Below, piece by piece: positions 1 to 63,384 of a DNA stretch of 64,000 nucleotides. This DNA is from Moniliella sp. 'wahieum' (taxonomy: Eukaryota), in contig RSEE01000003.1 in NCBI GenBank assembly GCA_003971905.1, positions 496,001-560,000 of the forward strand, written 5' to 3'. The position numbers and the translations under genes are program-made. Every line of letters begins with the position of its first letter. Positions within the stretch are counted from its first letter, which is position 1. The notes beneath the pieces are model-generated. The model searched no databases and had not been told where the DNA came from. It was given only the letters and a program-made list of their open reading frames with translations.

Positions 1-2103
1 CTCATAGTTCTTCTTTGCCCAATGGTCTGCTGAAGCCGACTTAACCGTATACTGCTCTCATTCTCCTGTTGTCCTTCCCCCCCTCCCTCTGGCAGAAGAG
101 ATAATGGTATCTCATCCGTATAGACTGTGGGGGCGAAGTTTCCACCCCGTCGTTATCCACCTTAATCCACCTTGGCATATATTCAGTACTATACGAGTGA
201 ATCAGTTGACACCACGCATTACGGTGAGATATGTGTACTTCTGCCTTCGTTTTGTGGTTTAGCGTCAGTTTCGCCACGGTGCACAAACACCTCGTTCACT
301 CTGTTGTTCTGTCTTACCACTGGTCCCCGCGAATGTGTGCTAAGCCGATGCTAGGCGTGTGGTTGACGTACTTTACTTGATGAGCCTGCGCGAGTCCCAC
401 CCGTGCTATATTGACAGCAACCTGAAGCAGCCGAAGAAAAAGCCGAGCCGAGAAGACACGGCCCGGCGGCATATCACGTAGAGCTGACACGGAAGGCAAC
501 CTCCAGTGTTTTACTAACGATGATCGATTATCGATGAACGATGGCAATTCTCCGGCACATTCATGTATATTGTCCCACACTTGTACCTCTCCGAACTCAG
601 CTCTCGGCCTCTTTGTCCTTTTTTTGTCTCGTGTCAACATGTCAATAACTGTAAGGCGCACCGACGTCCAATGATTAATGTTCCCTACGAACGAACCGCC
701 TGTGTGCAAGAAAGCCGAGTTTCTGAGCGACTCTCAGATCTCAGCTGGTCTTGGCCCCGACCCGAGTGACTAGTGATACTAGTGACTAGTGAGCCGCTGA
801 GCTCAGGCATCGGTGTATTCATATCCGTTTCAAGCGTCAAGCTCACTCATCGATCATCGATAACCTCGATAACCGGTAACCTGCCGCCGTTGTGGTATCC
901 TACTCAGTTCCAGTAGGGTTTATAATTCGGAACAAAAGTCTGGTATTAAGCGGCTGAGAGAAATTAGTTGCACAGCCGATGTTCGTGCCTCTAATGTACT
1001 GTGGTGAGACCCTCAGGCCTCACATCTGAGATCTGGAGAGTCTGAGATACGAGAACCGGCAGTCAGATCCCTCTAGCACTATAGTAGCCACTTAAAATGT
1101 AGTCTTGAAGCAAGCTTCAAGTCATCAAGGGGGTGTCTTGGTGTCTGCACTCTTCTGTGTTCCCTACTATGAGGCTAAGTATACCACACAAGCAAGACAC
1201 ATAATGTTATGCTTGTTGCATGATGCATATGATGCTGTTCGACCGGGTGAACCGTCGGTACTGAACTATATACAAAGGGATACATCCCAGGGTGTGTTAT
1301 TGTACACCAAAGAAGAAACAATCCTCCAACCTATTGGTATTTGATCAGCTTTTGAGCTCGTCCACCGCCCCCCAATCCGACGACATCTGCTTTATTCATG
1401 TATATAGGGATCTACAGCTAAGAGGGACCGAGGCGGCAGCTAAGAAGTAGAAGAGGGGGGAAGGACACTCCTATGTGAGAGAGAAGTGAAGCCACACAAG
1501 CGTTAGTCGCTGACAAAAAAAGGACCAAAAAAGACGGAGGAGTCTTGGGCGGCAAAAGACGAAGAGATGAGAGGAAGAGAGCAATGACGCGCATTAGAGT
1601 GCCCGTCTCGTCTGTTCTAAACCTTCTGTCCAACAACCGTAAAATTCGAGCAGCGCAACTCCCCCTATAGAGAGCTCCAATGGAACTATTACATACGCCA
1701 TGCACTGTTGTCAGGGAGCGTTTGGACCCGACAACGCCTAGTGTGGCATCTCATACCAGGCCTCAGGCCTCAGTCATTTCTTACGCAGGTCCTCATTAGC
1801 CAAGGTGACGCTAGGATATTGGGTTCAATGTTGGCGACAACAGCTTTCTTTTTGGTTTTTTGTGCTGAAGAAGGAGAGAATGGAGGAGGATGCGGTTTTG
1901 TATCAAAACCGCTGGAACTAAGACAAAAACTGAAAATACAAAGAGAAGAAGAGAGAATGTCTTTTTACCTGCTCCACGTACACTCTTGGATCATTGCAAG
2001 CCTTATGCGAAAGATGCTTTACCAATAGAAAGCACCGACATGTTGCAACTCACAGTTAAATGCATGTAGGGGGGAATTTACTGTAACATTTACTTAGCGT
2101 ATA

Positions 2104-2195
2104 GCTTCAATGGGTTAGTGGTATACTACATCGTTGCCATTACGGCTGGCCCTTTAGACATCGATGTGACAGGGGTTCGATTCCCCTTTGAAGCA
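2104..2195 (+). tRNA. tRNA-Gly(GCC) with 21-nt intron
   Basis: Acceptor stem GCTTCAA/TTGAAGC, anticodon stem CATCG/CGATG with loop TT-GCC-A, intron ~2140-2160 after position 37, T-arm AGGGG-TTCGATT-CCCCT, oligo-T terminator at ~2200. Confidence 0.93.
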
Positions 2196-3049
2196 CCACC
2201 TTTTTGCTCAAACTCTGCTGAATGGAGGGACAATTATGCATGGGTTGTGTTGTCGGGCGTCTTATCGTTTTTGCCGGCACCAGCCTGCCGCCCGATCACT
2301 CTTCTGCGCCCTCATTTTTTGGTACTCGTTCGAATGCCGAAGACACCTAAGGGAGCGGATGGGCAGAAGGGTGACCGGTGACCGGTGCCGGTGAGGCCCG
2401 AGGAGAAAAGGTGATGGATCTTGAAGCAAGACATGGGTCTGGGTGCAGGGGAATCTCGGACTAGGCACAGGACCAGTGAGACTACAGGAGAGAGTGCACA
2501 GGCAACAGGTGAAGTGCCACGGGACGATACTCGCGGCGTCGAAGCAGCGGAATCGAGGCGAACTGTGGTCTATCGACTGTAGGACCAGGGGACCCCAGTC
2601 AACACAACCACTCTTCATGTAGCCTGAATATCGAAAAAATATGAATACCGATCACAGCTGATCGCCCGGCATCCAAAGCACTCTTCCACCCTTCACGGGG
2701 AATCCGGAATGGAGGTGGACTACAGCCTGAGGGAATCAGGTACAAAGGATGCTATTAATAAAGGGTGTGCATATACCAAACTGATAGACAGGACGAGCAA
2801 CACCTGCTGTGGAGCCCCATAATGCATAATACGAAGCTAGCTACATGGGCTCTGGGTTGCAGTGAAATATACACTCTGTGCAGGACCAGAGAAATTGGAA
2901 AGCATTATAATATGTGGTGATATGGTGTCGCCATCTCGTGGTTTGTTATTTTGAGATGAAAGCTCGCGATGTTGTCCATGCGTCCCTTGTGGAGTTCCGT
3001 GTCACTGTTGGGCTATAACGCGGTGGGGGACTGATCGATTTACACTTTT

Positions 3050-3540
3050 GAACGCTCAAGTTGAGCGCTCAGGCTGAGCCTCAGGCCTGAGCCTCAGGGT
3101 TCTGGGGCCTCAGGAGGCCTCAGGTTCAGCGCAGCCTCAGCCTCAACAACGGTGACCAGACTATCGATATGGGGAATCTTACCGAAAGTATACTAGGGAT
3201 TCGTGATTATCGATTATCGTTTAGTGACTGACTAATAGGGACTGTGACATATGTGACTAGACTGACACTCAGAACTCAGTACACTCAGAACTCAGTACAC
3301 TCAGTACTAGTACTAGTGTTCCTAAATGTTATGCGTTATGCCACACAGTATATATGCGTCTATACTGGCATCGATGACCTGTGACAGTGTCGCATGTCAC
3401 ATCCAGTGACTAGTGACTGTGCCATATGTCAAAAATGTCCAACTTTTGTAAGTCACATGTCACATGCCTGATGTCTGTCACATGTCACAGGTCACCATGA
3501 GAGCGGCTATACGAAAAGGAGTAACGCGTAACGAGTAACG
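3050..3540. repeat. Cluster of 7-bp-period palindrome arrays (representative)
   Basis: AGCGCT, AGGCCT, ATCGAT, ACTAGT, AGTACT, ACATGT and ACGCGT units separated by single bases. Confidence 0.85.
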
Positions 3541-5471: not shown

Positions 5472-6861
5472 GGTACAATAGTCTCGGGAGGCTGTGTCGA
5501 TCTTGCGAAGATGAATGATGCAAAAGTGCGTATTGGTGAGTGCTAGAGACTGAATGTAGTGAAAAAAGGGGGAAGCCGGAAATGGTGCAGAATTGGTGAA
5601 GGCAGCAGGCGAAGACGAAGGAGGATGAGACAAGTGACGTGGATGAGAGTGGGTGTGTCTGTGGGCACCCTATACCTCCGAGAGAGAGTGATGGAGGTAA
5701 TAGGCCTGGCAGCAAGGAGAAGAAGGCAAGAAAGGGGTTGCAACGGCGTGAGTGTCTCCTATAGAACCAGACGAGGCGCCCTTATATATGTTCGCTGGAG
5801 ACGGAAAAACAGTGGATAGCGTTTTAGATGATGTGGGCACGGGCACTTGCACAGAGACTGAACATCTGCGTGTTCTGTCAGAGTTCTCAGTCAGATTGCC
5901 TCCTATTCCTTTTACTCTTGCTGCCAGGTATATCACAAAATCATTAGACCGTATTAGACCGTATGATCAGGGTCATCGATTGGTCCCCCAAAGTGCTAGC
6001 GCTCTCTCAGTTCTTGCACTTGTCAATATAATCATGATGCATGATCCACATGATGCGTGATGCGTGAGTCCACATCCGTTGGGATCACTCGATCACTAGC
6101 TTCACTAGTCACTGGTTCCAAGTAGTCTGCTCTTCTCCTGGGGCCTGGCATAGCTCTGAGTCTCAGACCTCACAGGTGAAATCACTTGAACGCTGAACGT
6201 CAGCGCGTCAGCTTCAGCCTGAGATCTCACGCACAGCCTGAGCGTAGAGAATACCCTTCTCTCCGTTTGCTGGATACTTCGTTGTGATGCGCACGCAGTC
6301 TCGATGCACGATTGAAATCACATGTCGTTTTGGAGTCTTGCTGGGGCAAGCCAGGGCAGGCTTGAAGCTGGAAGCTTGAAGCAAGCTTGACCGGCCTGAG
6401 GCCTGAGGCTCCCAGTCAGGCCTCGGGGCTTCAGGGCCTGACATTTGTGACAGGCACCATCAGAGCGCAAGAATCGCGGATGGCTACCAAGGTACCAAGT
6501 GCTATAAACGTATGCTGTGGTACATGGTACGCCAGAATGGATCACCACGTCACAGGTCACAGGATGCATGATGTATGATGCATGATGACATGATGCATGA
6601 CATGTGACATGTGATTGTCACCGCTCTGTCATAATATCAGCGGTCACCGGTCACCGTCGTCACATGAAACTGCATGGTGCATGATGCATGATGCACGGCA
6701 TCCGATCATGTCCGCGATGTTGTCGCCGGCCACCCTCAGGCTCAGGTGCCTTTGCCACAGACCTCCCAACGCCTAAGACCCAACTATAGCTACCAAAGGA
6801 AGTATAGTGGTGGTACTTCGGGTAACTAGGGTAACTATAGTAACTAATAACTAGCAACCAC

Positions 6862-7044
6862 TGTCACAGTCGGGGCTAAGGCGAGGGAGACCAGGATCAG
6901 ACTAGGCCAAGGGGTGCAGCAATCGTTCGTGGGGAAGAAGCAAGAACAGAGGACATGGTGCGAAGTGGAAGGAACAGGGAAGGAGCGAGATGCTCGAGAC
7001 GAAGAGAAATTGGAAATGGGAGCGAGATCAGCCAAACTATGACA
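6862..7044 (-). repeat. 3' LTR
   Basis: TGTCACAG...CTATGACA, direct repeat of 10320-10499. Confidence 0.96.
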
Positions 7045-7054
7045 TTGCCCCCTT

Positions 7055-8560
7055 TCAGACCTCATCTCCCGGGCGGCGACGGAGGCGAGAGAGGGCGAGT
7101 CGGCGGGCATGGGAGACAGGCTTATCGGGGTAGAGGGCGTGGAAACGGACCACTGGCTCGGCGTCATGAGACATGTCCGCAGCGGGTACCCACTCCCTCT
7201 CGTGGACAGGATAGCCCGGAAGTGAACAAAGTACTCAATGCGGCCTCCACGACCCTTGCGGCGAGAGTCGAGAACATGTTCGACCTCGTGATGAACCGCA
7301 CCATCATCAGCATACTCGGGGAGAGGAGGCGGGGGCTCGATCAAGCGGGCAGGGACCACGTCACCAAGGGTGTAGGCTCGCAAGCGGGACACATGGAACA
7401 CGTCATGGAGGTGTAGGTAGTCGGGGAGGCGGACCTGGTACGCGGCGCGGCCCACGGCGCGGACAATGGGGAAGGGGCCGATGTAGCGATAGTCGGGGCC
7501 GTCAGAAGGCCGCTGGCTGGGCACATACCCGTCCCGAGACCAAGACAGGCTGGCCAGCAGTGAAGGAAGCCGCCTCGGTGCGTGCTGGTCGGCATAATGC
7601 TTGTAGCGTGCTTGGGCCGCGGCGAGCGTGCGGTGGGCCACCGCCTGGGCCGAACGCAAATCCTCCACATATGACGCAGCAGCGGGCACGGGCGAAGTGG
7701 AGGGCTCCAACTCCCCCGGGGAGAGTAACCATAGGTGAGGACAAAGGGGGACTGGTGGGTGCTTGAGTGGGAGGACGAGTTGTAGGCGAATTCGGTGGGG
7801 AGGAGGTCGAACCAGTTGGACTGCTGCTCGTCGAGGTAGCAGCGGAGGTACTGTTCGAGGATCTGGTTGAGTCGCTCAGTCTGGCCGTCAGTCTGGGGGT
7901 GGGACGCGGTGCTGAGGCTCGACTTGATGCCCAAGTCGGCGCACAAGGCTTGCCAGAAGTGGCTTGTGAAGGTCGGTCCCCGATCACTCACCAGATCCCG
8001 GGGAAGGCCATGGTAGCGAAAGACATGGTGTACAAACTGGCGTGCGAGCTGGGGCGCAGGTCCGTGTGTGGGCGGGAATGAAGTGACCCATTTTGTTGGT
8101 AAAACGATCCACCACCACCAGAATCGCGTCGTAACCATTGGATGGGGAAGGGGTAATGTGGTCCATCGTCAAGTGGGTCCACGGGCCTTGGGGAGGGGAA
8201 AGGGGCTGGAGGGGTCCGGCGGGTTGGTGGCAAGGCGCTTTGGTCCGTTGGCAGCGGTCGCACGAGCGCACGTAGGCCCACACGTCGGCTGACAGGCGGG
8301 GCCACAATATTGAGCGCGGACACGGGCCAACGTCTTGTCGCACCCATGGCCCGCCAATGCCGAGTCGTGGGCTTGGTGGAGAATGGCAGCGCGGATCGGC
8401 CGGTCGCCGGGGACGTAGGCCTGGTTTCCGTGCCACAAAAGACCGTCGCGGACCGTCAAAGCATGGCGAGGTGGGCTTGGAGCCGTAGCAAGGGACCAAC
8501 GAGGGTCACGAGGCACGAGTTGGCGGATGCGCTGTCGAATCTCGTCGGCAGACACTCGCT
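7055..8560 (-). CDS. Retrotransposon integrase (HHCC, DDE core, GPY/F) with C-terminal chromodomain; frameshifted
   Basis: AHDSALAGH...CDRCQ (HHCC); [23 protein letters not shown] (D-D-E); YIGPFPIV (GPY/F); [23 protein letters not shown] (chromodomain). Confidence 0.93.
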
Positions 8561-8715
8561 CCACCACGGTGTATCGGGGTCCGCCGCCATGAGCTTGAGG
8601 GCGGCGGCAGAACGTTCGGACATGGGCTCCGCCAGTACTGAGGTGCCGCGCCAGCGGGCGGGAGGGAACCGAGGAGGGAAAAGGAATCGAGTTGACAGAG
8701 GGGGGCGAGATGGGG

Positions 8716-10277
8716 TTAGATGAGGAGGTGGACTTGGGGGGGCCCGGGCGAGTGCTGGTGCTGGTGCGTAGTCTTGGTCTTGGGCTGGTCTTGGGGATGG
8801 GCTGGTCTTGGGGCTGGGGCTGGTCTTGGGGCTTGGGCTGGTCTTGGGGCTGGGGATGGTCTTGGGGCTTGGGCGGGAGTTGGGGCTTGGGCGGGAGTTG
8901 GGGCTGGGGCTGGGCTTGGGGCTTGGGCTGGGCTTGGGGCTTGGGCGGCAGTTGGGGCTTGGGCGGGAGTTGGGGCTGTGGCCGGGGTACAGTCGTGGAA
9001 GGCATATGGGTGATCACGGCACTGCACCTTGAGCGCGGGCGCGGTGCGCCGGGCCGCCGCTTCAGCGGTGGCGGTGACTGCGCGGAGGTCCATGGGCTCC
9101 GCTTCGGGCGACGAGGGCCGAAACCAATGATGCCGCCCGATCCCGGGGAGAGCTGGTACCATGAGCGCCCAGCGATTGCGATTGGTCGATGTCAATGGCC
9201 GCTGTGCGCAGTTGTTCGAAACTGATCCGTCCCAAGTGAGCGACTCGCCGCGGGAGGCGATTGCGTCACGCACCCGCGGCTTCAAGCCGTACAGAAAGCA
9301 ATAGTAGCGGTCCTCATCCGACGCGTTGGGGTTCCAGCGACGCAGCAGAACCGTGAGCGTAGCGGAATAGTCCGCTGCAGATCCCGTCTGCCGAAGACGA
9401 CCAAACTCCTCAAACGCCTTCAGCGCCGGGTGGTTGCGCCCCACTGCTCCAGGAAAGCTGCGCGAAACGCAGGCCAAGACTGGAGGGCGGGTTTGGTGCG
9501 CGCCTCCAGGGGGAGGGCCACCTCCGAACCGAATGCGACCCAAGTGAGGGCCTCCCCTGCAGCAGGCCCATGAAGCGGTCAATCCATGCCGCCGCGCCCA
9601 TATGCGTGAGGGCGACGCGCGCTAAATCTCGAAGGAGGTGACGACGTGCTGGGCCTGGACCCGGTCACGAGATGTGGGGTTCGCACCAGACGACGGGTGG
9701 AAACGAGCGGGCTCGAACATCTTCGGCTCTTCCGACGCCTTGTTCGGGATGGCGGTCAGATCACCATAAGGCCAGGGGCGGGAGCGGGGGCGGGGGCCGA
9801 GGACACCACGCCAGTCTGAGCCTCCCGTACCGAGGCGGCCAACCGGGCCTCTTCCGCGGCGAGCGCCGCCTCCTCCCGCCGCTGACGGAGGCGGTGCTCA
9901 CGGCGCTTCGCCTCTGCTCAGCCTCGAAAGCGCGGCGTGGTCCTCCTGGGCTGCAATGTAGGCCTGAGTTTCCCGGGCCTCCGTCAACAGAAGCTGGCGC
10001 ATTCTGCGGGCCTCATCGACCCGGCGCTGAGCGGCCTCGAGGCCCAGCCCGGACAGGTCGGAGGCAGGCAATGTATACCCCGGGGGCGCGGGCGCAACAG
10101 ACGGAGCTGCATGGGGGGGTCCAGAGGGGCCAGCCGGGTGGAACCACTCCGGGCCATCGTCGTCGAACGGAGCGTCAGAGGGGGGGTCGGACGGGGGTCG
10201 GATTGGGCCGCGCCGCGCGATGGTTGGGCGGCGCGCTAGGGTTACTGGGTCAGGGGGTTGTCGTGGATCGAGGACAT
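8716..10277 (-). CDS. Retrotransposon Gag with Pro/Ala/Gln repeat tail; frameshifted
   Basis: LRQTGSAADYSAT...FLYGLKPRVRDAI (retrotransposon Gag capsid-like) and the EPMDL motif typical of fungal Gypsy Gag. Start ATG at 10277 is inferred. Confidence 0.82.
8770..8978 (-). repeat. 18-bp tandem repeat inside the retroelement (PAQAPT/PAQAPR-like hexapeptides)
   Basis: Repeated GGGCTTGGGCGGGAGTTG / GGGCTTGGGCTGGTCTTG units. Confidence 0.9.
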
Positions 10278-10319
10278 CTCTGGTCGGGCTCGCCTGTTGA
10301 CGGTTTAGACGAACGATAA

Positions 10320-10499
10320 TGTCCAGTCGGGGCTAAGGCGAGGGAGACCAGGATCAGACTAGGCCAAGGGGTGCAGCAATCGTTCGTGGGGAAGAAGCAA
10401 GAACAGAGGACATGGTGCGAAGTGGAAGGAACAGGGAAGGAGCGAGATGCTCGAGACGAAGAAATTGGAAATGGGAGCGAGATCAGCCAAACTATGACA
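10320..10499 (-). repeat. 5' LTR
   Basis: TGTCCAG...CTATGACA, followed by TSD ACCAC. Confidence 0.96.
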
Positions 10500-12842
10500 A
10501 CCACTAACTACTACTACAGCTATAACAACTTCAGATCTCAGATCCTGTAGTATACTATGGTTCATCATGTGGTTCATCGATCGCGCACATGTGTGCCACG
10601 CTCATTCGTACGGGCTCGCGCTACATCCGGTTTGGAAGCGAACGGCGGGAGCCAGAGGGTCCAGACCTGCTGCCGAACTCAATCGCTGGGCTCTCCTGTG
10701 GATTGGGAGCTAGCACGAACTAGGATATAATAGCAGCACACACGTCTCGGATGAGTGAGCCCTCCGGTAATAGGAGCAGAGCCTTTCTTTGCCCCTGTCT
10801 TGAGCATGGAAAATGATAATGATTAATGATACACGAATGCCATACCAGATCTCAAGAGCTCAGGTCTCAGGCTCAGGGAAGCACCGGAGACTCACATGTC
10901 GCTTTGGGGTTAAAAACGTAATTATAAATCTTATTATACCGCAGGCAAAACCCGCAACGCGTAACCCGCCCCCGGGTCGCGCGGTCAGGGGGTCAACGTT
11001 CAAGTTGAACTCAACGTTGAAGCTTGAAGTTCAACACGTTCAGCAGGGACAAAATAAATATACGCTGACTCTACTGACTATCTTGAAGCTGGAAGCTTGA
11101 AGAGCTTGAAGCTGGACTAACTCCTGACTCTCATTGTGGCTATTTTAACTGTTACTTTACTAGTTACTGTGAAGCTTGGAGCTTGAAGCTTGAAGTCCTG
11201 TGCAGCAGGTGTAGTCTGAGGATCCGAGGACTAAATGATAGTGATTATGCAAACTATGGTGATACCAGTGATATTATGGCCAAAGGCCGCCGTTACCTGA
11301 CGGTGGCCGCTGTTGTTACATGAACTAGTGGTCGTTTGCCCACACAATGACACTTTTAATGACATGTGATAGTGATAACCACGGCTAATAACAACTAGTG
11401 ACTAGCGACTAGTGACTTCGCTATACTTGGTACTTTTCTAATCAAGCTTCAAGCTTCAAGCTTCGAGTAGAATATTAGTTAGTAGAGTCGTATATCACAT
11501 GTCACATGTACCCAAGATGTCATGCTTCCTGGACATATCCTCATTTTTCGGTGTCGGAACTAAAGATAGATCGGAGCTATAGACGGAAGGCAATATGATG
11601 TTTAGATACCAGATGGATTCCCACCGCGGGAGCTGTAGACACCTGACTTTTTTGTGCGTATAGCCTGGCATTATATTATGGAGTACTGTGTCACATGGGA
11701 CTCAGGCCCCAGGTCCCAGGCCCCACGGCCTCACCGCCGGCCTCAGGCTTCATCAATGCATCATGCATCACAGGCCCGAAACAGTCTGTGGAGGTTGGGG
11801 TATCCTGTAGGATCGAGGACACCAATGGTTCAGGCGCTTCTGGTAGGCGCAGAGTTTCCCTGTCACGAATGCAAGACGGTGTGGATATTTGCCAGAATCG
11901 CGGGTGCAGCGAAAAGTAAATAAAATGACAGCCAATGTTGGCCTCAGATGTGGACAATACAATTAGTAGGGTTATGCGCGTCTGTATTATAGTCCGACAC
12001 ATGCTGGAATGTGCTTTCAACCATCACTTGCAGTCCACAATTCTTGGCTTTGTATTTCACCCGACCTTAATGACATTTCTCGTCGTGGCGTGTATATATG
12101 CGGAACCACCACCGCGCCGTGTGTGATGGAAATGAATGACCAGGGACAGGTGACGTGTGATGTCACATGTCGCACATGATGCATGATGCATGACGCGTGA
12201 CGGTATTGCAAGTACTGCATAATGGCGTTTACCGTTTACCGGGTACCGAAAGGAAGACCGTGTTTAACATGCTCGAAATGAAACACGGGGAAGAGCGACA
12301 TGAGCTGATCGAAAGGGTAAAGGCGAAAGTGATGAGAGGCGGGTACTATGGGATGTTGATGAAGGCAACGGGGGGGGGGGGGAAGGGTCATAACCATGTT
12401 TCGACCACATGTTATCCCATTCTTGTTTCGAAAAAGAGACTGACCTTTTCTGTTAATACCAACACATATGAGAACACATTTCTTGCTAGCATTCATGCCA
12501 TATGCTCCCTCTCCTATCCGTTTTACAAATGCTGTACGGATTCGTATAAACTACTTAGCGGTCGTTGTTGGATGCCCTCTATCCTGTGGTTGTTAACGAT
12601 CGGGATGATGCCTGAGGCTCAGGCCTGAGCGCGCGAGCGAGCAGAGGAATGATTCATGAGGCCGGAATGAGGGGGATCGAATCGACTATGACGCGATGAC
12701 GGCTCTCTGGAGGTTTTATTACTTTCATCGGTGGTTTTCTTACACCCTGCATCAGTGCATCATCAGGCGAGATTTATGCATAGCAACGTAATAAACGAGT
12801 CGGGAGAACGCATTAGTTGAACAGCCAAAAGTTACTATAACA

Positions 12843-21369: not shown

Positions 21370-23818
21370 CTTTTCCTCTTGCCCTTGACTTCTCTTTCTG
21401 GCCTTCGATGATATTGCTCGTGGATTCACTCCTCAAAGTATTGTCGGCTTCCTTCATCATATCTCCGTCGTAGTATCATTTCTTTTCCTCCTTCCTTACT
21501 ATAGGCCCTATAGTATATACGTTCTACAAAAATGGGAAAAGGTGCCAACACGGCTGTGAAAGGCAAAAATGTTGCATGCGACTCTCTCTCAAAAGCACAG
21601 CTGTGCTTAATAGGCGCTTCAATGGCGAATACTGTGCAGCCCTCCGTGCTCCTCTGGTGTTTTACGTCGATTAAGACAGGGGAGAGGATAGACTCCATGG
21701 TACAAAAAACTTCTTGCGACCAAACACGAACGAATAATATAGGGCCTACTAATGTAACAGGATGGACCAGGGGGAAAAATATTATTAGTAGCGGAGTATA
21801 GCCGAAGGATAATAGAGCTAAAAGACATGGTATCTGACCCTTGCGTGGACTGCAAAGTTATGGAATTTGGTGGCGCGGAAAGCAAAAGATGTAGTGGAGA
21901 CATCTCTACTCTTCAAGTCGGTGCATTTAAAATATGTTTTGCCGACACTAGGAGGTTGCGCGTGAGCCGTCCCGACGGACACACACCCATCGTGTGATAA
22001 TGTCTCGAGATTGCCCTTTTCCTCCCTCCTTCACTCATAGGAGGCGCTTCCTTGGGCCCTGGTATGTGCACCTCTCCGACAAAGCACTATCAACAATTTG
22101 GGCCGAAAGGGGAGATCATGCATCATGAATCGTTAAACGTTAAACGTTAAATCACCTGTAGAGTCCCTCCCTCTACCGAGACATGTTAGCTGTGACATGT
22201 GAGCGCTAACCCTAAGGCTGAGGTGTGACATGTGACATGTGATACATGTGAGTCCCCCACTCTTTTCGTGATGTGTGTGATGTGGGATGCCATTAATGCA
22301 AATGTGACGGCAATAACGTTGGTGCGGCTTTTTCGAAGCACATTCGCACGGGCGCACAGTGCTTGGCGCGAGGGATCAGCGTGCTAATCAATGAGACTGG
22401 GTTAGCGCTCAGCCTACTATGCAGTGTATGGGCGACGTGCGCCTATATATATAGCGCTTACTTGTCGTGTCGGCAGTTGGTTGTACCCATACTGTATGCA
22501 CGGGTTTGTGATGAAATCGATGAGAGTCTATTACTATGCCAGAGAGTCCCGTGATGGTCCTTTACTTGGAGAGGGTGATGCAGTTGCCCAGTTGCAGTGG
22601 TTGTTGTTTATAAAAGGCCACAAAACGAGAAGCCGCGCGGCTATGGAATACAAGGAGAACTGTGCAACATAATGCCACAGCATAGTATCTTAAACAGCAG
22701 GTCCGAGCGTACTCAATGTTAGGTAGGATTAGAAGCAGAACATGATCTGACGGATGTAAGGACTGTTATGCATTAATCGTTTCATGGTTCGCCCCAACAT
22801 GTGTAGACACAGAGACCAGGATGATTTTTTCAACTGTCCTTAGTAATTATTGGGACCATCAGTGCATCAGCAAAGGAAACCCGTCCTAACAAATCACCTG
22901 TGGCGGCGGATTAGGCCGGCCTTAGGTGTCACAATGTCACACAGTCCACACAACAGATTTTAAGGCGGCGTGAAAATACTACTAGCACATTCTTCCAGTA
23001 CTTCCGTATATATATAACTAGGTAGATGCGGCCGTCCGTGCATAGTACTTGTATACGCTCTGCCTCACGCACGTGACGCGTGAGGCGGCTATCCTTTCAG
23101 TTATCACCACACTTTCGTTGATATAACAGACTCTCATCCGCACGGTGTGGGAAAAGAGTTTACACGTTTTTACCACGGTTCAGCTGTTGGTCGGAAGACT
23201 GAGGGCGAGGATCATCGACATTGTGATTTGAATATGAGTGTTGGCAAGATCTATTCAAGAACCTCCACCATGAGGCGGATGGTCGCAATGTGTTGGTTGA
23301 ACACTGCAATGCGTTCAACTACACTTCGTTTTTTCTCAATGCCAACCTTCATAAGTGCCTCGAGCTCATATGGACAAACAGAGGACCAGATAGTTCTCCA
23401 ATGACACATGGTTCTGTGCGTGCCCCCCCGTTTCTCGCGTAACAAACAAAAAAAAGTGCGGCAAAATATTGTGCGCGCACTGGCCGTTTTGGAGCAAACG
23501 TTTTGGCCTACAACTTCGGAAAAGTGAAGCGGGCTAACGGGGGCGCACAGTTCAAAAGAACGAGGAGAACAGCCAGAAACAATTCATATCATGGACCGGA
23601 CTGTATATCCTAATAGGGACAAACAACGTAGAGCAGGATCATTGTCGACGCCAATTATAAAAGGTGTTGAAAAAAACTGTCTCCCACAGACGCGGAAGTG
23701 TCATCGACCGGCCTCTCGATCTTGTAACGAAGCACAAAAGCGACCCCCTAAGTAAGGTGTATAGCCTAATAAATGTGTGTTAACACATTTTAGTACCTCT
23801 TCCCTTTGCCGTCTCCGT

Positions 23819-23836
23819 CACACACACACACACACA
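23819..23836. repeat. (CA)n microsatellite
   Basis: About 9 CA units. Confidence 0.85.
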
Positions 23837-26209: not shown

Positions 26210-26950
26210 CTCAGGCCTCGCTGTGAGGCTTCAAGCTTCAAGCTTCAAGCTCCAGGCTTCGGTCACTGTCACTTTTTGATCTTAGATCGATCCTTCAGAT
26301 CTCAGACCCTACTCCGGGGAGGTCACTCGGTCACCGGTCACGCGTCATGCACGTCATGCATCATCAATCATGCAGTCACTGCAATATGTAACTGGTCACC
26401 TGACCGGTGACCTTTAGCAGCCACCTAGTCACCAGTCAACTAGTCGCCACCGCTGCGTTCTTCGCTCCATGTTTACTCGCAACGAGTGTACCCCGCACAT
26501 TAATCGTTGCGACTGCACCATTAGTTACCTGGTCACCGGTGAGGCCACTCCCCGGCCGGCCCTCTCTGCAGTCAGGAGTCGGAGAGTGCTCTGTGCCGCG
26601 GCGCAATAGTAGTGCCACACGACCAGCACCAGCTCCATGTTCGCGGCGGCCCAACGTTTGCGCGGCTCAGCTGAGCACTCAGTCTGAGTACTCAACTGAG
26701 CGTTCAAACATTCAAGCTGCTCAATGTTCAAGTTCAAGCTTCAAGCTTCAAGGAGCGTTCAAGTACGTTCAAGCTCAACCAACCCTCGAGGGGCCATCGG
26801 TTCAACCGAGAAAATACGGGTGTTGCAAGATGGATTAGGTTTATATTGGGCCTTGTCCTGGGCCAGACGCAAGTGGTGGGCTGCGGGGCGCGGGGGCTGG
26901 CAGCCAGTGGCTAGTGGATGATCGATGATCTCGATGATCTGAGATTGAGA
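26210..26950. repeat. Cluster of 7-bp-period palindrome arrays upstream of zinc-finger paralog B
   Basis: TCAAGCT repeats, TCAGATCTCA, TCACCGGTCACGCGTCA, TGACCGGTGA, TGAGTACTCA, TGATCGATGA. Confidence 0.85.
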
Positions 26951-40914: not shown

Positions 40915-41984
40915 CAAGGCGAAGAGGTATAGTTATCGAGATTCTCGAAACCGCTGAATTGTGTTTATCCACCTCTACAGCATCTAAATCACAGCCTTCC
41001 CGAGTACCAAAAGTGCATCTCCCACTCCATCGCTGCGCTCCAGAGTCACCCCAAAAGCTCTCCATCCCAAGCTTTTCAACCAACTCGCGGCCCCGCAGGC
41101 TTTCTCATTCTGGCCATCAATTCATCCACCAGGCCGGCATTCCGGCTTGTGCCGAAGAACTTCGAGCAAGGCGCAAGCTGCTCCGTGCAATTCAGTCGCA
41201 AGTGCTTCCCCGTCGCTCCTAGTAGTGTGTCCTTTTTTGTCACGCTGCCGTCAAAAAAGCCTCGCAGGGGCCGCCCTTTTCTGTTGATGTCGTCCGTTCG
41301 CTCTTTGACCATATCTCCCACGTTTCCTAGGGGAACGGGACTCTATGTCACCTTGATGCCTAGCGGAATGGGATCGTGCTCACAATAACAATTTGGATTT
41401 GGATCGGTATCGCACACGTCAAGGATGCAAAAGGACAAGATGGTATTGGGTTAATGATGAAGAAACGCTCAACCCACAGTATAATAGTTGCGACGTCCGC
41501 CCCCCTCCTTGGCTATACCTTGAATTTCTAGACTTTAATTGGTCATTCCCACTCAGGATTCAATATTCAGGACTCCAGGCCCGAGTCAGGCCTCAGACCC
41601 TCAGGTGTACAATAAAGCCAATCGGGTTGATGACGTTGGTGGGAAGTAGGGCGGGCGCGTAGGGTGAACTAGGCCTATTAGGTGCCGCTTAATGCCTGGT
41701 GCACGTGATGGATGGCATCATCGATGAGCGATGATCGATGATAGACGAGGCAGAGCGGATTTTGCCCATCTATTCCGCCCGCGCCCCACCGAATCTGGGG
41801 TTGGACTAGGCTTTGTGGTGCAGCCCAGTCTGCAAAGCGTAAGCGCCTTGGTTACACGCATGCTCAGCGACCAATGATCGATGATCGATGATGTTGAACC
41901 TTGACTTCAAGCTTGAGGCTCCTCGTCTGCCACAGCTCCACGTCGTCCCAGCCATCTTGGCAGCCGTGCCCGCCATCGCCTGCG

Positions 41985-44950: not shown

Positions 44951-46913
44951 AAGCCGCACGAAAGTGACTTGAACGACTAGTTACTTAGATCGATGGGAAG
45001 AACATGGCCCATTTTTGCACGCAAGAGTGCATGGGTTTGTTCAACGTTCAGATCTCAGTCGAGCCACCCTACTAGTCTTAGCGTAGACCTTCCCCAGACA
45101 AGGAGACAAGGGGAGAGGATGGACTCGGGGGGCTCGGCCACACTCCCGCCGTCGCCCGTCCGTAACAGTCTTCATCGATCCTCACTACAGTTTCACCCGA
45201 TTTGGGGCCGTGGGGTGACTAGTGACGGAGAGAGCCCCAGGAACAGACGCCCATTAGTGGCGATACCATCGGCGTGGGTTAGATGGCACTCTCTTCTAAA
45301 AGACGACGGATCGAACTTGCTGTAATATTATGGCCTAGAATGCCTTGGATATGGATGACTTGTAGCATGAAGCTTGAGCATCGGGATAAAGCCGAGGTCT
45401 CAAGCTCCATGAGACCCTCAGCCTGAGGCCCGAGGCTCAGCAGGACTCAGCGCGTCAGGGGACGGATGGCCGAGATTGATATTGATGACCCTCCATGGAG
45501 TGGCAGGTGACCGGTGAAGGGTGAAGCTTGAAGCCACAGGGTACACCAGTCACTAGTCAAGCTAGTCACTAGTCATCCTGCTTCTGGCTACGTTTGATGT
45601 TGGCCACGACTGTAGCAAAAATACTTTTCATTATAGTGAGCTCACCACCAAGTGTGCGGGAGACGCAGATTGAGGACGAGTTGCTGAGCATCAGTGTTCG
45701 AAACTGAGGTGGTGCATAGTCTTGCCAAGTGTAGGGCTCAAATTGGAAACCAAAAGGGAACGCCGCTGATGGTGGTGCTATTGTGCCGTGATCCGCGTGA
45801 TCAACGTGATCACGAAGTCGCCTAAGTAACGCGTAATCGGCATTCGTTGACCTGCTGATCGATGATTGATCGATGATCGCCGATGATCCGATGGCTGCAG
45901 CCGGGTTGCCGGTGCAATGTGTGCACGCGTGCTCCGCCGGATTGAGTGAGACATCCGCCTATGCCGAACAACACGTGATGCGTACATGGCGCATGCTGCT
46001 GGTGCGTGCGTGGCTTTGTGAAACACAGCACGACACTGGCCAACTGGGAGGTGTAACATGTGAAGCTTGAAGCTTCAAGTCGGGCCGGGGTACCTGTTAC
46101 GCATGTTTAAGCTTTTAGGTTAAACATTAAGGCCGAAGGCCTCGGCCGGGAAAACAGCCACATTCACATCCACCCACTCCGGCCGCTTGCGGGATGGCTC
46201 CATCTTGCCGCTCTTCCTACATTGGACACCATGCACCACCAGACACCCCCGGCCAGCCCTCCCCGTCACGCGTCACGCGTCACGCAGTGCCGTACTACAG
46301 CAGGCTACTGCCTGCTACTGCTGCTCTGTCACATGTCACAGCATCCCCGCCGTAGCAGAACCCACGTGTGGCTGCGGTGCGAATAGTTCCCCCACATCCT
46401 CTGCAACACGGGCATTAGGCAGGCGGAGAGTTTGAAGCGGGCAAAACTGGGGCCCCGGATGATCTGTTGGTGCTCCAACATATCGCGTCCGTGTACCTAC
46501 CCACTGCCGTAGTGTAATAGGAAATGCGCAACACCGTCGGTGGTACCTATACCAGCGGGACGCTGCAATATCTGAATATGACCACACAGCATGAACGTAC
46601 GGTAGTGGCGGCACCTGGGGGTGGCTCAGGTTGAAGTCTGCTGGGGCCTGCGAACACAGGTCCGATGCCTCTTCCCAGAAATAATATACGGGAGTGGTAG
46701 GTATATATATACCAACAGAGGACCGCTGTCCACCTCCTTCTCTTACTGTCACAACCTCAGTCCGACTTTTTAACTCACAACCAACTCCCCCAAAACCCTC
46801 CAAAGCTAACTTCTCCTCTTCGAGAGGCTCTTCTGCCCTCCTTTCCCTTTTCTTCTCTTCACCCTCATCGTCAATTACTTAAGGCTACAAGGCTCTCCCC
46901 TCACCTCGTCACG

Positions 46914-54991: not shown

Positions 54992-56525
54992 GTTGCAAGC
55001 CGAGCGCTGGTGCCAGAGGAGGACGAGGAGGGCGCGGCGGCGAGGGCGCGGGTGGTGGCGTGGGCGACGAGGGGGGGCGTGGGCGTAGGTGACGGTCACG
55101 CGTGACGCGGTGAACGCGGTAACGGCCACACCGACCGGAGCTCCAACCGAGCTGGAAACGCCAACGCACACTGGCGCCCCGCTTGCGGCCGAGGCGCCGC
55201 ACATCCGCCGCCCAAGTATGGCGGCAGTGTGCCTGATGCACTGCCGCCCCGGGGCTGGGCAGCCACGCTTGGGACGAGTGACTAGTGACCGGTGACCTGT
55301 GACCGGTGACCGGTGACCTAGTGACCCTAGTGACCCGCAGAGGCAATAGTCCATTCGCATAGTAGGGACCAGTGACGCGTGACGAGTGACTCAGTCAGGG
55401 ATTGCCCAATCTCCAATTGCAAATCGCCCCGACTGGCGCCGAGCGCGGGGACAACGCAACAACGTACTCAGCAGAACATTGAACCTTGCCTGGCCGCTAG
55501 CATCATGCACCCAGCATCACACATCAGCAGCCGGCAACACCCAGCCCAACCAAGTCATCCCAGGTGCGTCCCATGGCAGTTGGTTCGTTAAGAGGGCAAT
55601 ATATATATGGACACGAGCAGGTGCTACTGAATCCCCTTTATGTACAATGGGGTACCGTCGGCGGGGAGAAGGGTGGAAGGGCCCTCAAGTGCTGGCGCCC
55701 AAGGTCGGATCGCGGGATCGGCGCCGGTGACGAAGCCATTGACTGAGCAATCGTTTCGGATATGCATGACTGGCGTTCCAACCTTGAGACAAAAAGCTTG
55801 TAAGGGGGGATGCCTGCTGGGGTGGTTTCTTCATAATACCTCGATGGAGACATCCTATAATGAAGACTTGGCTTTATTCGGCTCATCACTCAATGGTGAG
55901 CATCGGATAGACCTCGCGCGAGAAGAGATCGGTAGACTGATGATCATTGATGTTTTTACAATGTGATGCGCGCCGGAAGAAAAATGTACTTAACATGGTG
56001 GTCTTTGAGGTGGAAGCCTGACTTGCGCCCTTCCTGGAACAGAACTGCATGCCATTTGTTGCAAGTGACAGAAGTTTCATGCGTCGACGTGGTTCCAGGT
56101 GGAGGACCGAATAAGTTCCAGGTAGGCGTGACGTTGTAGAGTCTTCCTGATGGGGTTGCAGGCACATTTCGGACATGTGACCGCAGGAGTGTGGCATGCC
56201 TTCCCGCACAGTTGATGAGACCTTGATAGCGAGTGTAATCGTCGGTACAGCAATGGTCGTACTGTCAGTAAACATGGCAGGGATGTGTTGGTATGTTGGC
56301 AAGCGCGCCCCATGGGCTAGACGGGGCGGTAAGAGAGAAGCGTGCAGGAGCGGTAGGGTCGCGGGGCAAAGTCTCTGGTCCGTCCAATGGTACATAAATA
56401 TAGACAGCAGTACCGCCACACCAGTCAAGCTCGATCAACGTGAACTGTTAGGGTATAACGGATAACCCTCGTAGATGGCAGGCACTGTCATCTGCTTCTG
56501 GTGACACCATCCACATGACAAGATA

Positions 56526-58328: not shown

Positions 58329-59676
58329 TGGAGCCGGCAAGGGTTGCTGCCCCAGTGCTAGCAGGCCAAGGGAGGGAAATAACAAGCTGTATTTCTTGGG
58401 AGCGATCGAGAAGCTGCATCGCCGGTTAGAAAGCCGTGGTGGTGTACGCAAGAGTCGACCCAGTGAAAGCACCGTAGGTTGCAACAGCACACACTGCGGC
58501 GCGTGTAGCTAGCTTGTCGGACGGGCAGACCAGAGAGGTCTAGAGATGATGGATGAGGAGAGAGGAGCCAAGAAGCTGCGCTGGCGCTAGTGTGGCCAGA
58601 GGAGGCAAGGGCCGGCGGGAGGCGATGGTGGTGGCGGGATGGAGGGAGGGATGGTGCGCATGGCGTGTGCAGGCAATCTGCTGAGCTGCTGAGCGCTGAT
58701 GCGGTGCATGCATCGATGTGCAGCGGCAGCGCGTGAAGGCCAGGGGATCTGCGGTGGTAAGCGCCGAGTAATAGCCAGTAAGAATTAGCCCGCGTGCAGA
58801 ATTTCGATTTTGATGCAAGTTGCAAACTTGGGCGGGTGATTACCTCCATCACCAGTGAGGTCACAGGTCCCGCGTCATGCTCACGCGGTCACGCGGCACC
58901 CGGCCGCTCTCCCATCTCCCATCTCAACCAGTGTTCCCGCGTTCCCGCGTTCCCGGACGTTGCATGTGGCATGCGACGCGTGACGCGTGACGCGTGATAC
59001 ACTGCATCCGAGGAGACCTGGCCTACGACCTGTGGCCCGGTTTGGGTGCTGGGCCACCGTCGCCACCGTAATCAACGTAACCAGTAACCGGTAACCGTAA
59101 CGCGTAACCACCGTTCCACCGTCGCCATCTTGGCCACCACTTAGCGCTTAACGTTTAACCCAGCCTTAAGCTCTGCCTACGGTATAGTTAGAGACTGTCC
59201 GACAAGCAAGCCTTACGACATGTGAGCGCGAGCAGCAGCCAAACGCAGTGGGGCCTGAGGATGTGTTGGGGCGATGCCTTAGGCCTTAGGGTTGCGCCAA
59301 TCGCACGCCATCCTGCGTGACGCGTGACGCGTGACGCGTGATGTGTATCACCGATCACCGGTCACCGGTCACCCCTCTTATCGCCCGGACGCTCACTCTG
59401 CTCCCCGGTGCTAAGCCCTACCATTCTCATAGCCCGCTGTACCTCTCCTCAGAACCACGTCCTCCATTCTCCTTCTCCATCAGCAGGATGGAGTCCACAG
59501 CTTTTTTGGCTGGTAACACAAAGAAGGCTCTCCGAACTCAATGATAACCAAGGCAATTACAATGTGGCAATGGACGTCATCGACTTCACAACTAGTCAAA
59601 CAAACAAGTTCCGTTGGTATATAGAAACGAGCTGATTGTGGGGAGGGGAGCAGGTAGGTTAACTTCGGAAAAATCA

Positions 59677-60220: not shown

Positions 60221-60646
60221 TTGATCATGAAGATGTAGCAGTTTTCCGCCGATATCGTTGAGAGATTTCATGGCTGCACACACATTGGCCCCATGGGCAT
60301 ACAGGGAGGAGGAGCTTGTGTGCTCACACGCTCATGGCGGCGTGCATCAATCAGAATGAAGCAGAGTGCAGACATGCATCTGGTTCATTGAGCGTGCACC
60401 CGGCTGCGGAAGAGAACCGCCTGCATCGCCGGTTCCGCCGCACAGGCCTCGCTTTCGCAGTATTTTAACATTTCAGCTGCCAATGACTTCAACTTCAAGC
60501 TTCAAGCTCCAAGTTTCAACGTTCAACCGAACCTTCAACGTTTTCAACCGAAGCCCAACGTTCAACAACCTTCACGCTTCAACTTCAACTTCGACCAATC
60601 CCGTCAACCACGAAGGCTGCGCGGTGCGAAGAGCAGCGCGCACGCC

Positions 60647-62747
60647 ATGAACGAGTCCGACGCGCCCATCGCGAGCGCCGAGCCCGACGATCAGCCCCCA
60701 CCGAAACTCGGTGTAGAGAGCCCCACACCTCCCCCCGAGGCCGGGCAGACCGAGTACGACAGGCTTGTGCGCGAACGCACCGACCTCTTCATCCAATCCC
60801 GCCACGGTATCCTCTCTCGCGCCCGTACCTGTGCTGGTACACGGCGAGCCTCTGGCCGTCTGTGCTACGGGCGGCGCACAGGTGAGCGATCTTGCCCTCA
60901 GTGGTGATGGGGCTGTTTTGCTCTCTGCCGGATCAGACGGGTACGTGCGTCGGTACGACGTGTATGGGACGGTGAATGGGCGTAGTCTCCTCACTGTCAG
61001 TTTGCGGCACCAGTACACCGAAGGCTTCTACAAAGCCGGTGTCCTCTCGGCCTATTACCCGAACGAGGAGATTGGATCTGATGCCCCCTCTCCGCGCAAG
61101 AGCAAGGGAAAGCGGCGTGCGTCTGAGAGCGAGGAGGACGTGCCGCCAGTCAAGTTATCCGCTGCACCCGTGCACTCGGTCGTGTGCCATTCACAAGCCC
61201 TCTGGGCCCTGGCTGGCTCAGAGACTGGGTCAATCAACTTGATTCCTCTGCGACATGCTTTGGGCGGACGGTCGTCGGTTGTGCATGCTCTCCGAAGACA
61301 TCGCGGAGCCGTGTCCGCATTGGCCTTGACCCTTGGCGAGAAGGGCGTGATTAGCGGGTGGGTGGGACCACACAGTGCTGGACTGGGATTTGGACACTGG
61401 GCAGGTCGTGAGGCAGTACCCTGACCATGTGGGCCAAGTTTCCGGCATCGCTTTCCGCACCTTTGGGCCAGTTGGTGATGTGCGCCCTCCAAAGGGGGCC
61501 GTCAGTATCATTTCCAGTGCCGCTTCTGATCACCCCGACCTTGGTGATGCGCCCGAGGGGCCCAATGCGTCGGAACTATCCGAGGCATCAGAAAGCAAGC
61601 CCACACATACCGAGGAACCCATGGATGTGGACGAGGACGAAGAGAAGGCTAGTCCCACACCCATGCAAGAGGACCCAGCCCCGACTGGAACAGTCGAGTC
61701 AGCAAGCGCGAATCCGAATGCTAATGCTCATGCTAATGCAAGTGCATCCTCCGCCTACGGAAGCAGCTCCTCTCGAGGAAGCGAACGCGTCGGACAACGG
61801 AAAGAAAGATTCGGAATTGCCCGCCCCCAGTCCGAGCCCGAGTCCTGGAGTTCGTGATGCGAATGGGGCGCCTGGCCCAACGGAGGAGGGCGACTCCGAT
61901 GGCGACTCGCTCTTTGGGGATAGTGAGGAAGATGCGGATGGAGAGGCGGATTCGGATGATGGCTCAGATACTGGACCAATACTGCAGCTCCCTGGGTCGC
62001 GTCCTGTCCTACCCGGATCACTTCCCACTGGATCACCTGTGATGACACTCCCCCAGTCCAAGGAGGAAAGCTCGTCAGAGGATGAGCCCCTGGCGGTGAG
62101 CCACAGTCCGAAAAGGACCTCTCCCCCCCTCCTAAGGAGGATGTGCGAGAGAGGAAACTTGCCTCTCTCCGCGGGGGCGAGGGGTTCGACGCTGACCTTT
62201 CCCATTTTAGCCCAGATGTGTTTCTGAGCACAACGTTGGCGGGGCAAGTGCTTCTGTGGGACCGGCGTGTTAAGCCTGGGGAGAAGGGTGGGGTGCATGC
62301 CCTTCCCTTCAGGAAAAGACCCCGCCGTGGTGCCAGTCTGCCTGCTGGTCGCCCTATGGTGATCGGATCTATGTGGGCCGCAGGAACGAGTGCGTGGAGG
62401 AATGGGATTTACGCGCCCTCTCATCCAGCAGCGAGTGGGGCAGCAACGCTGGGCTCCGTGCTACCCATCGTCTTCCCCGCGGATGTGGCCCTGTGACCGC
62501 GGTGCTGGCCATGCCGAATGACCGGCACATTGTGACAGGGACACAACCGATAATGTGCGCTTCTGGGACACCCCAGCCCGCGACCAAGAACTCCGCGTTT
62601 CGTATCATCGCCGGCCACAACGGTGCCACCGTATCCTCACTTGCGCTCGACCCGACAGCGCGCTTCCTCTTTGTCGGATCAGGAGACCGAGGTTGGATGG
62701 GTACCTCCACCGAGTCCATCTTGATCCATGAAGTGGTTCCCGTGTAG
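60647..62747 (+). CDS. SPT8: SAGA complex WD40 subunit Spt8
   Basis: SAGSDGYVRRYD..VNG..LT..LRH..KAGVLSAYYPNEE, PVHSVVCHSQALWALAGSETGSINL..LRH, DWDLDTGQVVRQY, acidic DSLFGD insert, GHNGATVS..SGDRGW. Confidence 0.88.
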
Positions 62748-63384
62748 CGTCGATACTACGATACACTGGATCTTTTATGCATGGTCTCCTTCAATAGACC
62801 ATCCACCCCACGTCTTTCAAAAATAGGCCATGAACTGCATGAACACAAGGCGTATATTTTAGCCGGGTTTAGGATACCTACTCCCAAGACGACGGAGTCG
62901 GCGCGGCGAAAAATCTTGGAAATAAAGTGATCGTGCTTATTGGTCGCGGGTTGTGTGGTTCTAACTGTTCCCGGTTTCGGTCCACATCTCTTTGACATCC
63001 TGTGATGACGATATTGAGGCGTTCAAAGGCTCTGATGCGGGCAGGGGGCGGGATAGTAACCTGGTTGTTGTTGCACAGCGCCTGCTGTAGGACAGAATGA
63101 AGGGACTTTTCTCCGGTGGTACACCTCACGTTCCCGCTGCTGCTAATTGTAGTTTCTAGAAGCTAGCCCGTCTAACTGGTGGGGTACAGGGGCTCAGCGC
63201 TCAGCGCGGGCTGATGGATGATGCGTTGGGAGCAGAGCTCAGCCTGAGCCATACGCTGGCTAGAAGCAGCTGCCCCACACAATTCAGCACACGTGACAAT
63301 GCGGGGTGCCCAACAGCGGCCCCTCCGCTCGTCCAACCGGCTCGGCGTGTGCTGGACCTGCACGACGCACCCGCCATCCGCATC

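Follow-up and report, generated by a model that had tools for sequence, protein, structure and literature searches.

Palindromic 7-bp arrays in gene-upstream DNA of a Moniliella contig are probably the excision scars of a cut-and-paste element

We analyzed a 64-kilobase (kb) window of nuclear fungal DNA (Moniliella sp. 'wahieum', contig RSEE01000003.1, positions 496,001 to 560,000) whose noncoding DNA carries many short arrays with a period of 7 base pairs (bp). All counts given here are for this window, not for the genome. Pfam matches locate in it a TOR gene (with FAT, mTOR, PI3/PI4 kinase, and FATC domains), a MutL-type mismatch-repair gene, a V-SNARE gene, a sugar transporter gene, an MFS transporter gene, SPT8, and a gene with a 'fungal PH-like' domain. 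Because the best protein matches of the sugar transporter open reading frame (ORF) come from Testicularia, Ustilago, and Malassezia (Ustilaginomycotina) at only 43-44% identity, the host is a basidiomycete without a close relative in the protein collection searched. The window also contains one young mobile element:

6862..10499 (-), young Ty3-like long terminal repeat (LTR) element of about 3.6 kb, with 183-bp TG...CA LTRs and the 5-bp duplication ACCAC.

The two LTRs differ by one 1-nucleotide (nt) indel and one 2-nt indel. The ORF pieces for integrase and SH3 are broken, and the interior includes an 18-bp tandem repeat of about 11 copies (8746-9028).

A preliminary description of this DNA had noted the arrays as 6-bp palindromes that begin with A and end with T, separated by one spacer base. 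We found 202 occurrences of TSA-N4-TSA (S, G or C; N, any base), and the N4 was palindromic in 112 of them, compared with 6.0% of N4 across the window overall. Hence, the arrays are real and far above chance. Exact period-7 runs of at least 14 nt numbered 58, against 4 for period 8. In 43 of the 58 the unit was a 6-bp palindrome plus 1 base, in all 43 cases of the form A....T, while about 10% of 7-mers have any palindrome-plus-1-base rotation by chance. When comparing TNA triplets with the same central base, we counted 195 pairs at a gap of 4 (42 expected), of which 113 were palindromic versus 2.3 expected, so that the enrichment of palindromic over non-palindromic N4, which the preliminary description had proposed as a check, holds within the window. 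Palindromes were not in excess at gaps of 0-3 and 5-12.

The cores are diverse, with at least 14 distinct ones, and GTAC had no same-N match in the window. At 96 locus-level cores the center of the TNA was G or C in 82 and A or T in 14; the G/C spacer reported earlier is thus preferred without being exclusive. Likewise, AT-only cores, which had been described as missing, are depleted 5- to 7-fold rather than absent: they account for 3 of the 96 cores (33173, 41558, and 10817) versus about 21% of background sites. Two entries in the preliminary description fall outside the pattern: 1027-1035 is a single AGATCT palindrome, and AGTACT at 3300-3315 repeats with period 6. Period-9 relatives of the same process are also present.

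The order of the triplets indicates what kind of unit this is. Palindromic pairs consisted of TGA..TGA (51), TCA..TCA (47), TAA..TAA (9), and TTA..TTA (6), making 113 same-N matches in direct order versus 15 mixed ones, among them TCA..TGA (8) and TGA..TCA (6). Direct same-N triplets mark a duplication and not inverted half-sites. A period-7 extension into the flank was absent in only 3 of the 113 same-N palindromic matches, compared with 27 of 82 non-palindromic controls, and the commonest extension classes were exactly 2 nt long and on one side only (12 and 13 matches). In the 27 period-7 runs of 12 nt that follow the grammar, the TNA stood at the end of the repeated 5-mer in 25 and in its center in 2. 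Because the flank extensions are near universal and the TNA is placed at the end of the 5-mer, we conclude that the arrays are built from the unit abTNA + b'a' + abTNA or from its mirror form, and that the 4-bp palindrome consists of two flank bases and their own reverse complement.

A scan for the bare shape (W5 + reverse complement of its first 2 bases + W5), which makes no assumption about sequence, returned 170 matches. T and A occupied positions 3 and 5 in 128 of these (TGA 58, TCA 55, TAA 9, TTA 6), where a second-order Markov model of the window predicts 0.38. The proposal that symmetry and spacing are conserved rather than sequence was correct as a description; the cause lies in how the DNA is made and not in what reads it. 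Among the 82 non-palindromic same-N matches, 54 were one base pair off a palindrome, versus about 40% by chance, which suggests that near-palindromes are older units in decay. The 11-mer CCTGAG CCTGA (or CCTCAG CCTCA) occurs five times (3135, 6736, 10867, 33207, and 53581); it belongs to a period-6 (+6) class related to the 7-bp units, with 10 matches versus 1.2 expected.

The array loci are given below; +7 and +9 denote the bases gained.

765..792, AG TGA CT AG TGA TA CT AG TGA CT AG TGA: +7 units with ACTAGT core, with one +9 in mid-chain.
847..882, TCATCGA x2; GATAACC TC GATAACC (7-mer doubled around 2 flank-complementary bases, +9); TAACC GG TAACC.
2370..2394, GGTGACC array, ACCGGT core.
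3048..3145, chain that mixes TGA and TCA, GCGC and GGCC cores; contains two perfect 10-bp palindromes, TGAGCGCTCA and TCAGGCCTGA.
3265..3317, ACTCAGT AC ACTCAGT period-9 units, then AGTACT period-6 repeats, which are not of the 7-bp type.
6549..6695, dense lattice with ATGCAT, ACATGT, and ACCGGT cores; collapse at 6576 gives 3 events.
6821..6846, GGTAACT AG GGTAACT (+9), adjoining the LTR element.
11085..11195, AAGCTT-core arrays including CTTGAAG AG CTTGAAG (+9).
11442..11464, TCAAGCT x3.3, exact.
12175..12202, CATGATG array running into TGACG CG TGACG; three events.
22116..22242, ATCATGC unit; CGTTAAA x3 (exact 7-mer duplication centered on TTA/TAA); TGTGACA arrays.
26228..26360, GCTTCAA x4.7; TCAGA TC TCAGA; CGGTCAC x2; CGTCATG CA CGTCATG (+9).
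26727..26940, TTCAAGC array; GATGATC TC GATGATC (+9).
33082..33184, divergent promoter of the MutL-like gene (-) and TOR (+): 7 events inferred in a lattice of ATCGAT cores; TCAAA TT TCAAA (AT-only core).
41558..41907, between the TOR 3' end and the V-SNARE gene: ATTCA AT ATTCA, ATCGATG arrays, and TCAAGCTTGA.
45506..45575, key locus: GGTGA CC GGTGAAG GGTGAAG CT TGAAG, then AGTCA CT AGTCA AG CT AGTCA CT AGTCA.
45787..45879, CGTGATC CG CGTGATC AA CGTGATC (period 9); TGATCGA units.
46061..46340, upstream of the sugar transporter gene: TGAAGCT x2.7, CGTCACG x3.1, TGTCACA x2.
55277..55336, AGTGA CT AGTGACC GG TGACC ... and AGTGACC CT AGTGACC.
58975..59373, divergent promoter of the MFS gene (-) and SPT8 (+): ACGCGT arrays, 23 nt and 27 nt long; chain of GTAACC; GCCTTAG x2; TCACCGG array.
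60487..60527, upstream of SPT8: CTTCAAG array; TTCAAC G TTCAAC.
63192..63207, GCTCAGC x2.3; the last match in the window.

These loci avoid coding sequence. Stop-to-stop ORFs of at least 150 amino acids contain 1297 of the 3005 TNA sites (43%) and only 12 of the 113 same-N palindromic matches, and these 12 lie at the upstream edges of the ORFs. We found no match in the 7-kb TOR gene, and none at 7001-10000 inside the LTR element, which is itself embedded in array-rich DNA and carries no 7-bp units within. The matches cluster in intergenic blocks. Two such blocks are divergent promoters, one shared by the MutL-like gene and TOR (about 33.1 kb) and the other by the MFS gene and SPT8 (58.7-60.5 kb); others lie upstream of the SNARE, sugar transporter, and PH-like genes. 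In this respect the preliminary description, which placed the arrays upstream of genes and found them nearly absent from coding sequence and from young transposons, was accurate. A promoter-seeking element or selection against 7-bp insertions in coding sequence would each give the observed positions.

Several other features were noted in the window. The TOR gene (33900-40810, plus strand) is split over at least 10 overlapping or abutting ORFs in different frames, which reflects either many short introns or assembly frameshift errors. A 36/72-bp tandem repeat of about 4 units, 68-92% alike, at 52931-53110 (minus strand) lies within a 345-amino-acid ORF without Pfam match and is probably a repetitive protein segment. 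The 12-bp repeat CACCCTAGCCAC occurs 5.7 times at 18325-18392, in a region (13.7-21.9 kb) of long ORFs without Pfam match. Upstream of SPT8, the exact 16-bp repeat AGGCCCCCTCGCGTGG occurs 2.6 times at 60171-60212 and is unrelated to the TNA grammar.

To describe how such units could form, we enumerated break-and-rejoin models with a target-site duplication of 2-9 bp in every placement relative to the TNA, a hairpin offset of 0-2, and between -6 and +6 bases of trimming or palindromic (P) addition per flank. Only perfect flank hairpins (offset 0) reproduced the product, and only a 7-bp duplication ab-TNA-de, starting 2 nt before the T, gave both mirror products symmetrically; in this setting 2 bases are lost on one flank and 2 P bases are gained on the other. 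The main product is equally compatible with a 5-bp duplication (5 + 2) and with 7 bp trimmed by 2 bases, but the 5-bp version needs an asymmetric target. Twelve loci carry the whole 7-mer twice around two bases, as in GATAACC TC GATAACC and GGTAAAC GT GGTAAAC, and in 10 of the 12 these two bases are reverse-complementary to a neighboring flank dinucleotide. At 43409-43424 and 45796-45811 the 7-mer is fully duplicated and the middle bases, CA and AA, are complementary to neither flank; they may be untemplated additions or later mutations.

Exact duplications of a TNA-centered 7-mer were found at 6 loci (12 matches over both strands versus 0.15 expected). Such P-free duplications, for example at 12227, 22131, and 49110, have a TTA/TAA center at 3 of 5 distinct sites, compared with about 15% A/T centers in ordinary units; the repair outcome may depend on the central base, although the numbers are small. 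Different products of one ancestral 7-mer also stand side by side. At 45506-45534 the left-trimmed, untrimmed, and right-trimmed products of a single GGTGAAG are adjacent, and 55277-55336 contains both mirror products and a +9 product from a single AGTGACC. The doubled 7-mers, the exact duplications, and the adjacent products all favor a 7-bp duplication, and we prefer it to a 5-bp one because the 12 full 7-mer duplications and the 6 exact-duplication loci need 7 bp.

We tabulated products for non-palindromic ancestral 7-mers only, by bases lost or gained on the two flanks. The two main classes, (-2,+2) and (+2,-2), had 22 and 24 members, with at most 0.2 expected. Minor products formed a consistent set: 5 untrimmed (0,0) products versus 0.1 expected, 3 and 2 products of the +9 kind versus 0.0, 4 and 2 of the +8 kind (-1,+2)/(+2,-1), and 2 and 1 of the kind (0,+1)/(+1,0). 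The +6 products were weakly enriched. In the corresponding table for an offset of 1, as in hAT elements, no P-containing cell exceeded expectation.

We rejected several other geometries. P bases added to a 3-bp TNA duplication cannot reproduce the flank dinucleotide. A centered 5-bp duplication nTNAn predicts a gap-2 palindrome, which was seen 10 times versus 10.4 expected. Offset hairpins of the hAT kind fail, since no offset-1 or offset-2 model yields the product and offset-1 products are at expectation. Cores derived from element ends, of the Tc1 kind, disagree with the observation that cores follow the local flank.

We then reversed the three main kinds of event until none was left. This removed 104 insertions (53 of one type, 42 of its mirror, and 9 exact duplications) totaling 728 bp at 74 sites, with one event at 54 sites, two at 12, three at 6, and four at 2. 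The same procedure found 0 events in five Markov sequences. The DNA that lies no more than 200 bp from a match adds up to 16.4 kb, and the 728 bp are about 4% of it.

On this anatomy, we consider it probable that the arrays are scars of a cut-and-paste element with a 7-bp TNA-centered target and hairpins like those of RAG and Transib. Such an element would insert with a 7-bp target duplication ab-TNA-de centered on T-N-A, and its transposase would prefer G or C at the center and avoid AT-only flanks. Excision would seal both flanks as perfect hairpins of the RAG/Transib type. Host enzymes would open each hairpin about 2 nt from the tip, giving 4-nt 3' overhangs made of 2 flank bases and 2 complementary P bases. 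During end joining, we infer, one overhang would be removed and the other copied, so that the net gain nearly always equals the length of the duplication and the product with both overhangs is missing. The usual product would be abTNA + b'a' + abTNAde or its mirror abTNAde + e'd' + TNAde, always with a gain of 7 bp and always a 4-bp palindrome flanked by two identical TNAs. Repeated events at one site, possibly aided by later slippage, would build arrays and mixed-core lattices, and these would persist only in DNA that tolerates a 7-bp insertion, hence away from coding sequence and for the most part upstream of genes.

What the sequence itself establishes is the anatomy of the units, their statistics, their placement relative to genes, and the geometries that can or cannot yield them; the transposon as source of the breaks, the opening and joining of hairpins, and the target preference as a transposase trait are inferred. 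Two marks of an excision scar can be read directly. Both copies of the target duplication are kept, with the 7-mer present twice at 12 loci and 5 of its 7 bases twice in 128 matches, and the extra bases between the copies match the reverse complement of the flank (128 matches versus 0.38 expected, and 10 of the 12 period-9 loci). The preliminary description had offered three candidate explanations, and the third, a lineage-specific mutational process, is the one that the sequence supports, as the core is made of flank bases and their reverse complement.

Several points weigh against an origin by excision. Pfam searches of 91 ORFs (21 + 70) detected no DNA transposase, only Ty3-type integrase pieces and host genes. 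Scans for inverted ends bordered by a 3-bp TNA, a 5-bp NNTNA, a 7-bp NNTNANN, or any 7- or 8-bp duplication returned only matches of arrays with arrays, and a general repeat search of the window yielded only the LTR pair, one inverted pair derived from arrays, and two tandem repeats that are coding or internal. Direct evidence for an element at one of these sites, now or in the past, is lacking, as is a series of occupied, empty, and scarred alleles. The density of 104 events in 64 kb is very high, and the repeated events at 20 of the 74 sites would have to come from hot spots, from old scars being targeted again, or from slippage. Most published footprint sets are less uniform than the spectrum seen here, and the predicted +11 product, in which both overhangs are kept, turned up at most once (1 double-palindrome match and 0 full patterns). 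In its present form the model does not explain the high density, the repeatedly hit sites, the depletion of AT-only cores, or the absence of the GTAC core, and no described superfamily joins a 7-bp duplication with perfect hairpins.

Some of these points would suit a host nuclease acting without any mobile element. At TNA in open promoter DNA it would cut with a 7-bp stagger and seal the ends as hairpins, and imprecise rejoining would leave the scars. One candidate would be a domesticated transposase like Kat1 of Kluyveromyces, and domesticated hairpin-forming transposases have been described in fungi (PMC4763223). The lack of an element or transposase in the 64-kb window, the very high density with repeated events at 20 of 74 sites, and the concentration of matches upstream of genes all agree with such an enzyme. 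A plain nuclease, however, gives no target duplication, whereas strand transfer followed by excision yields a 7-bp duplication as seen here; a host enzyme that scars its own promoters would be costly; and the lack of an element in 64 kb is weak evidence. We therefore regard this explanation as unlikely. The same holds for its extended form, in which a novel and perhaps domesticated hairpin-forming nuclease with a 7-bp stagger at TNA keeps cutting open promoters and the TGA units have been co-opted as promoter blocks, a scheme to which we give little credence. Still less probable is a selected cis-regulatory or chromatin signal, be it tandem sites for TGA-recognizing (bZIP-like) factors or hairpin and cruciform DNA, with the palindromy kept by selection. 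The strong bias to gene-upstream DNA speaks for it, and many cores coincide with what we take to be factor-site motifs (ACGCGT, TGACG), so scars could be co-opted. When six arrays were folded as single-stranded DNA, the two with GC-rich cores were better than shuffles (z -3.5 and -2.6), but the other four were not (z -0.2 to -1.2), and this disfavors the structure-read signal suggested earlier. The earlier suggestion of a dimeric protein on TGA/TCA half-sites is likewise disfavored, since the triplets form direct repeats (51 + 47) far more often than mixed pairs of the inverted type (8 + 6). Moreover, there are at least 14 distinct cores, and in every case the palindrome derives from the flank beside it, something that selection on a motif would not bring about; the common near-palindromes with one mismatch (54 of 82) look like free decay.

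The number of units per site raises the question of microsatellites. Heptanucleotide slippage biased to hairpin-forming units, or a replicative template switch, would account for several units at 20 of 74 sites, with arrays of up to about 4 copies, and for the exact non-palindromic 7-mer duplications at 6 loci, and slippage can extend arrays once they exist. It cannot create the inverted dinucleotide or the strict requirement for T-N-A. The commonest state is a 12-nt unit (5 + 2 inverted + 5) rather than a tandem copy of 14 nt, single events make up 54 of the 74 sites, and period 8 is represented by only 4 arrays against 58 for period 7, which together make slippage a very improbable source of the pattern. 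An assembly or base-calling artefact might be suspected from the several genes of the window that are split over frames. We see almost no chance of this, as read errors would not give flank-templated 7-bp insertions that are limited to TNA and avoid ORFs, and the arrays are absent from the young LTR element and are accompanied by minor products that form a consistent set.

As a kind of feature, excision scars with P nucleotides are not new. The present analysis adds the 7-bp TNA-centered geometry, excludes hairpins of the hAT type, and provides a spectrum of minor products and an event count. If the arrays are indeed excision scars, the biochemistry of an unseen transposase (a 7-bp stagger, a TNA target, perfect hairpins, and opening about 2 nt off the tip) would be readable from its scars alone, and fungal gene-upstream DNA would be measurably built from such scars, with 104 events in 64 kb. 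They would also provide a ready source of tandem motifs resembling factor sites and of 7-bp length polymorphism in promoters. Annotators of this lineage would then have to treat the arrays neither as usual microsatellites nor as evidence of a regulatory code. In the open-access literature searched, we found no description of dense TNA-centered 7-bp palindromic scars in a fungus.

We compared the scars with known systems. Footprints of Tc1/mariner elements consist of TA, bases from the element end, and TA. Like the present units, they are short and stereotyped scars that resemble palindromes and lie between the two target copies, but their cores are constant and come from the element ends, whereas the cores here vary with the local flank. 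Heptanucleotide microsatellites share the tandem 7-bp period and the variable copy number. New microsatellite units are whole tandem copies; here the minimal unit is 5 + 2 (inverted) + 5, with a strict TNA and flank-derived palindromes, and 54 of the 74 sites are single 12-nt events with an inverted dinucleotide.

Closer parallels are found among elements that leave hairpins on the flanks. In hAT, Transib, RAG, and a MULE, flank hairpins are described as being opened by Artemis- or Pso2-type enzymes and joined by non-homologous end joining, leaving footprints with P nucleotides (PMC5873905, PMC5499845). The hAT elements (Ac/Ds in plants, Saccharomyces cerevisiae, and Candida albicans; Hermes) share with the present scars the flank hairpin, its opening by the host, end joining, short deletions with P nucleotides, and few dominant products in fungi, as in C. 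albicans with 35 and 18 of 128 clones (PMC5873905). Their offset hairpin gives odd palindromes, whose center in Ac/Ds is the complement of the base that borders the element (PMC5873905), while models with an offset of 1 or 2 fail here. Their usual duplication is 8 bp, compared with period 7 and doubled whole 7-mers in the window. A 7-bp target duplication is reported for the hAT7 families of rust fungi (Pucciniales; Kojima 2025, PMC12730594), which are thus like the present scars in duplication length and in having a basidiomycete host. Their hosts are Pucciniales, and the fungus studied here is nearest to Ustilaginomycotina (43-44% identity); the comparison made here covers duplication length and host group. 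Pfam and the inverted-end scans found no hAT domain or hAT-type ends in the window.

The perfect flank hairpin opened about 2 nt off its tip, and the resulting even-length palindromes with P nucleotides, are features of Transib, RAG, and the coding joints of V(D)J recombination. Because the offset palindrome center that is the signature of hAT is absent here, we assign the hairpins, as read from their products, to the RAG/Transib type. No RAG1-like protein was detected by Pfam among the 91 ORFs of the window, and within fungi the 2005 account of Transib reports it only from soybean rust (PMC1131882). Transib and RAG make 5-bp duplications, compared with 7 bp here; some Transib families are described with symmetric targets that have a central S/W, for example CASTG (PMC1131882), and in one assay duplications of 3-7 bp were counted as genuine (bioRxiv 10.1101/2023.08.20.553239). 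The combination of features that the putative element would have matches no described superfamily: hAT7 shares the 7-bp duplication, and Transib and RAG share the type of hairpin.

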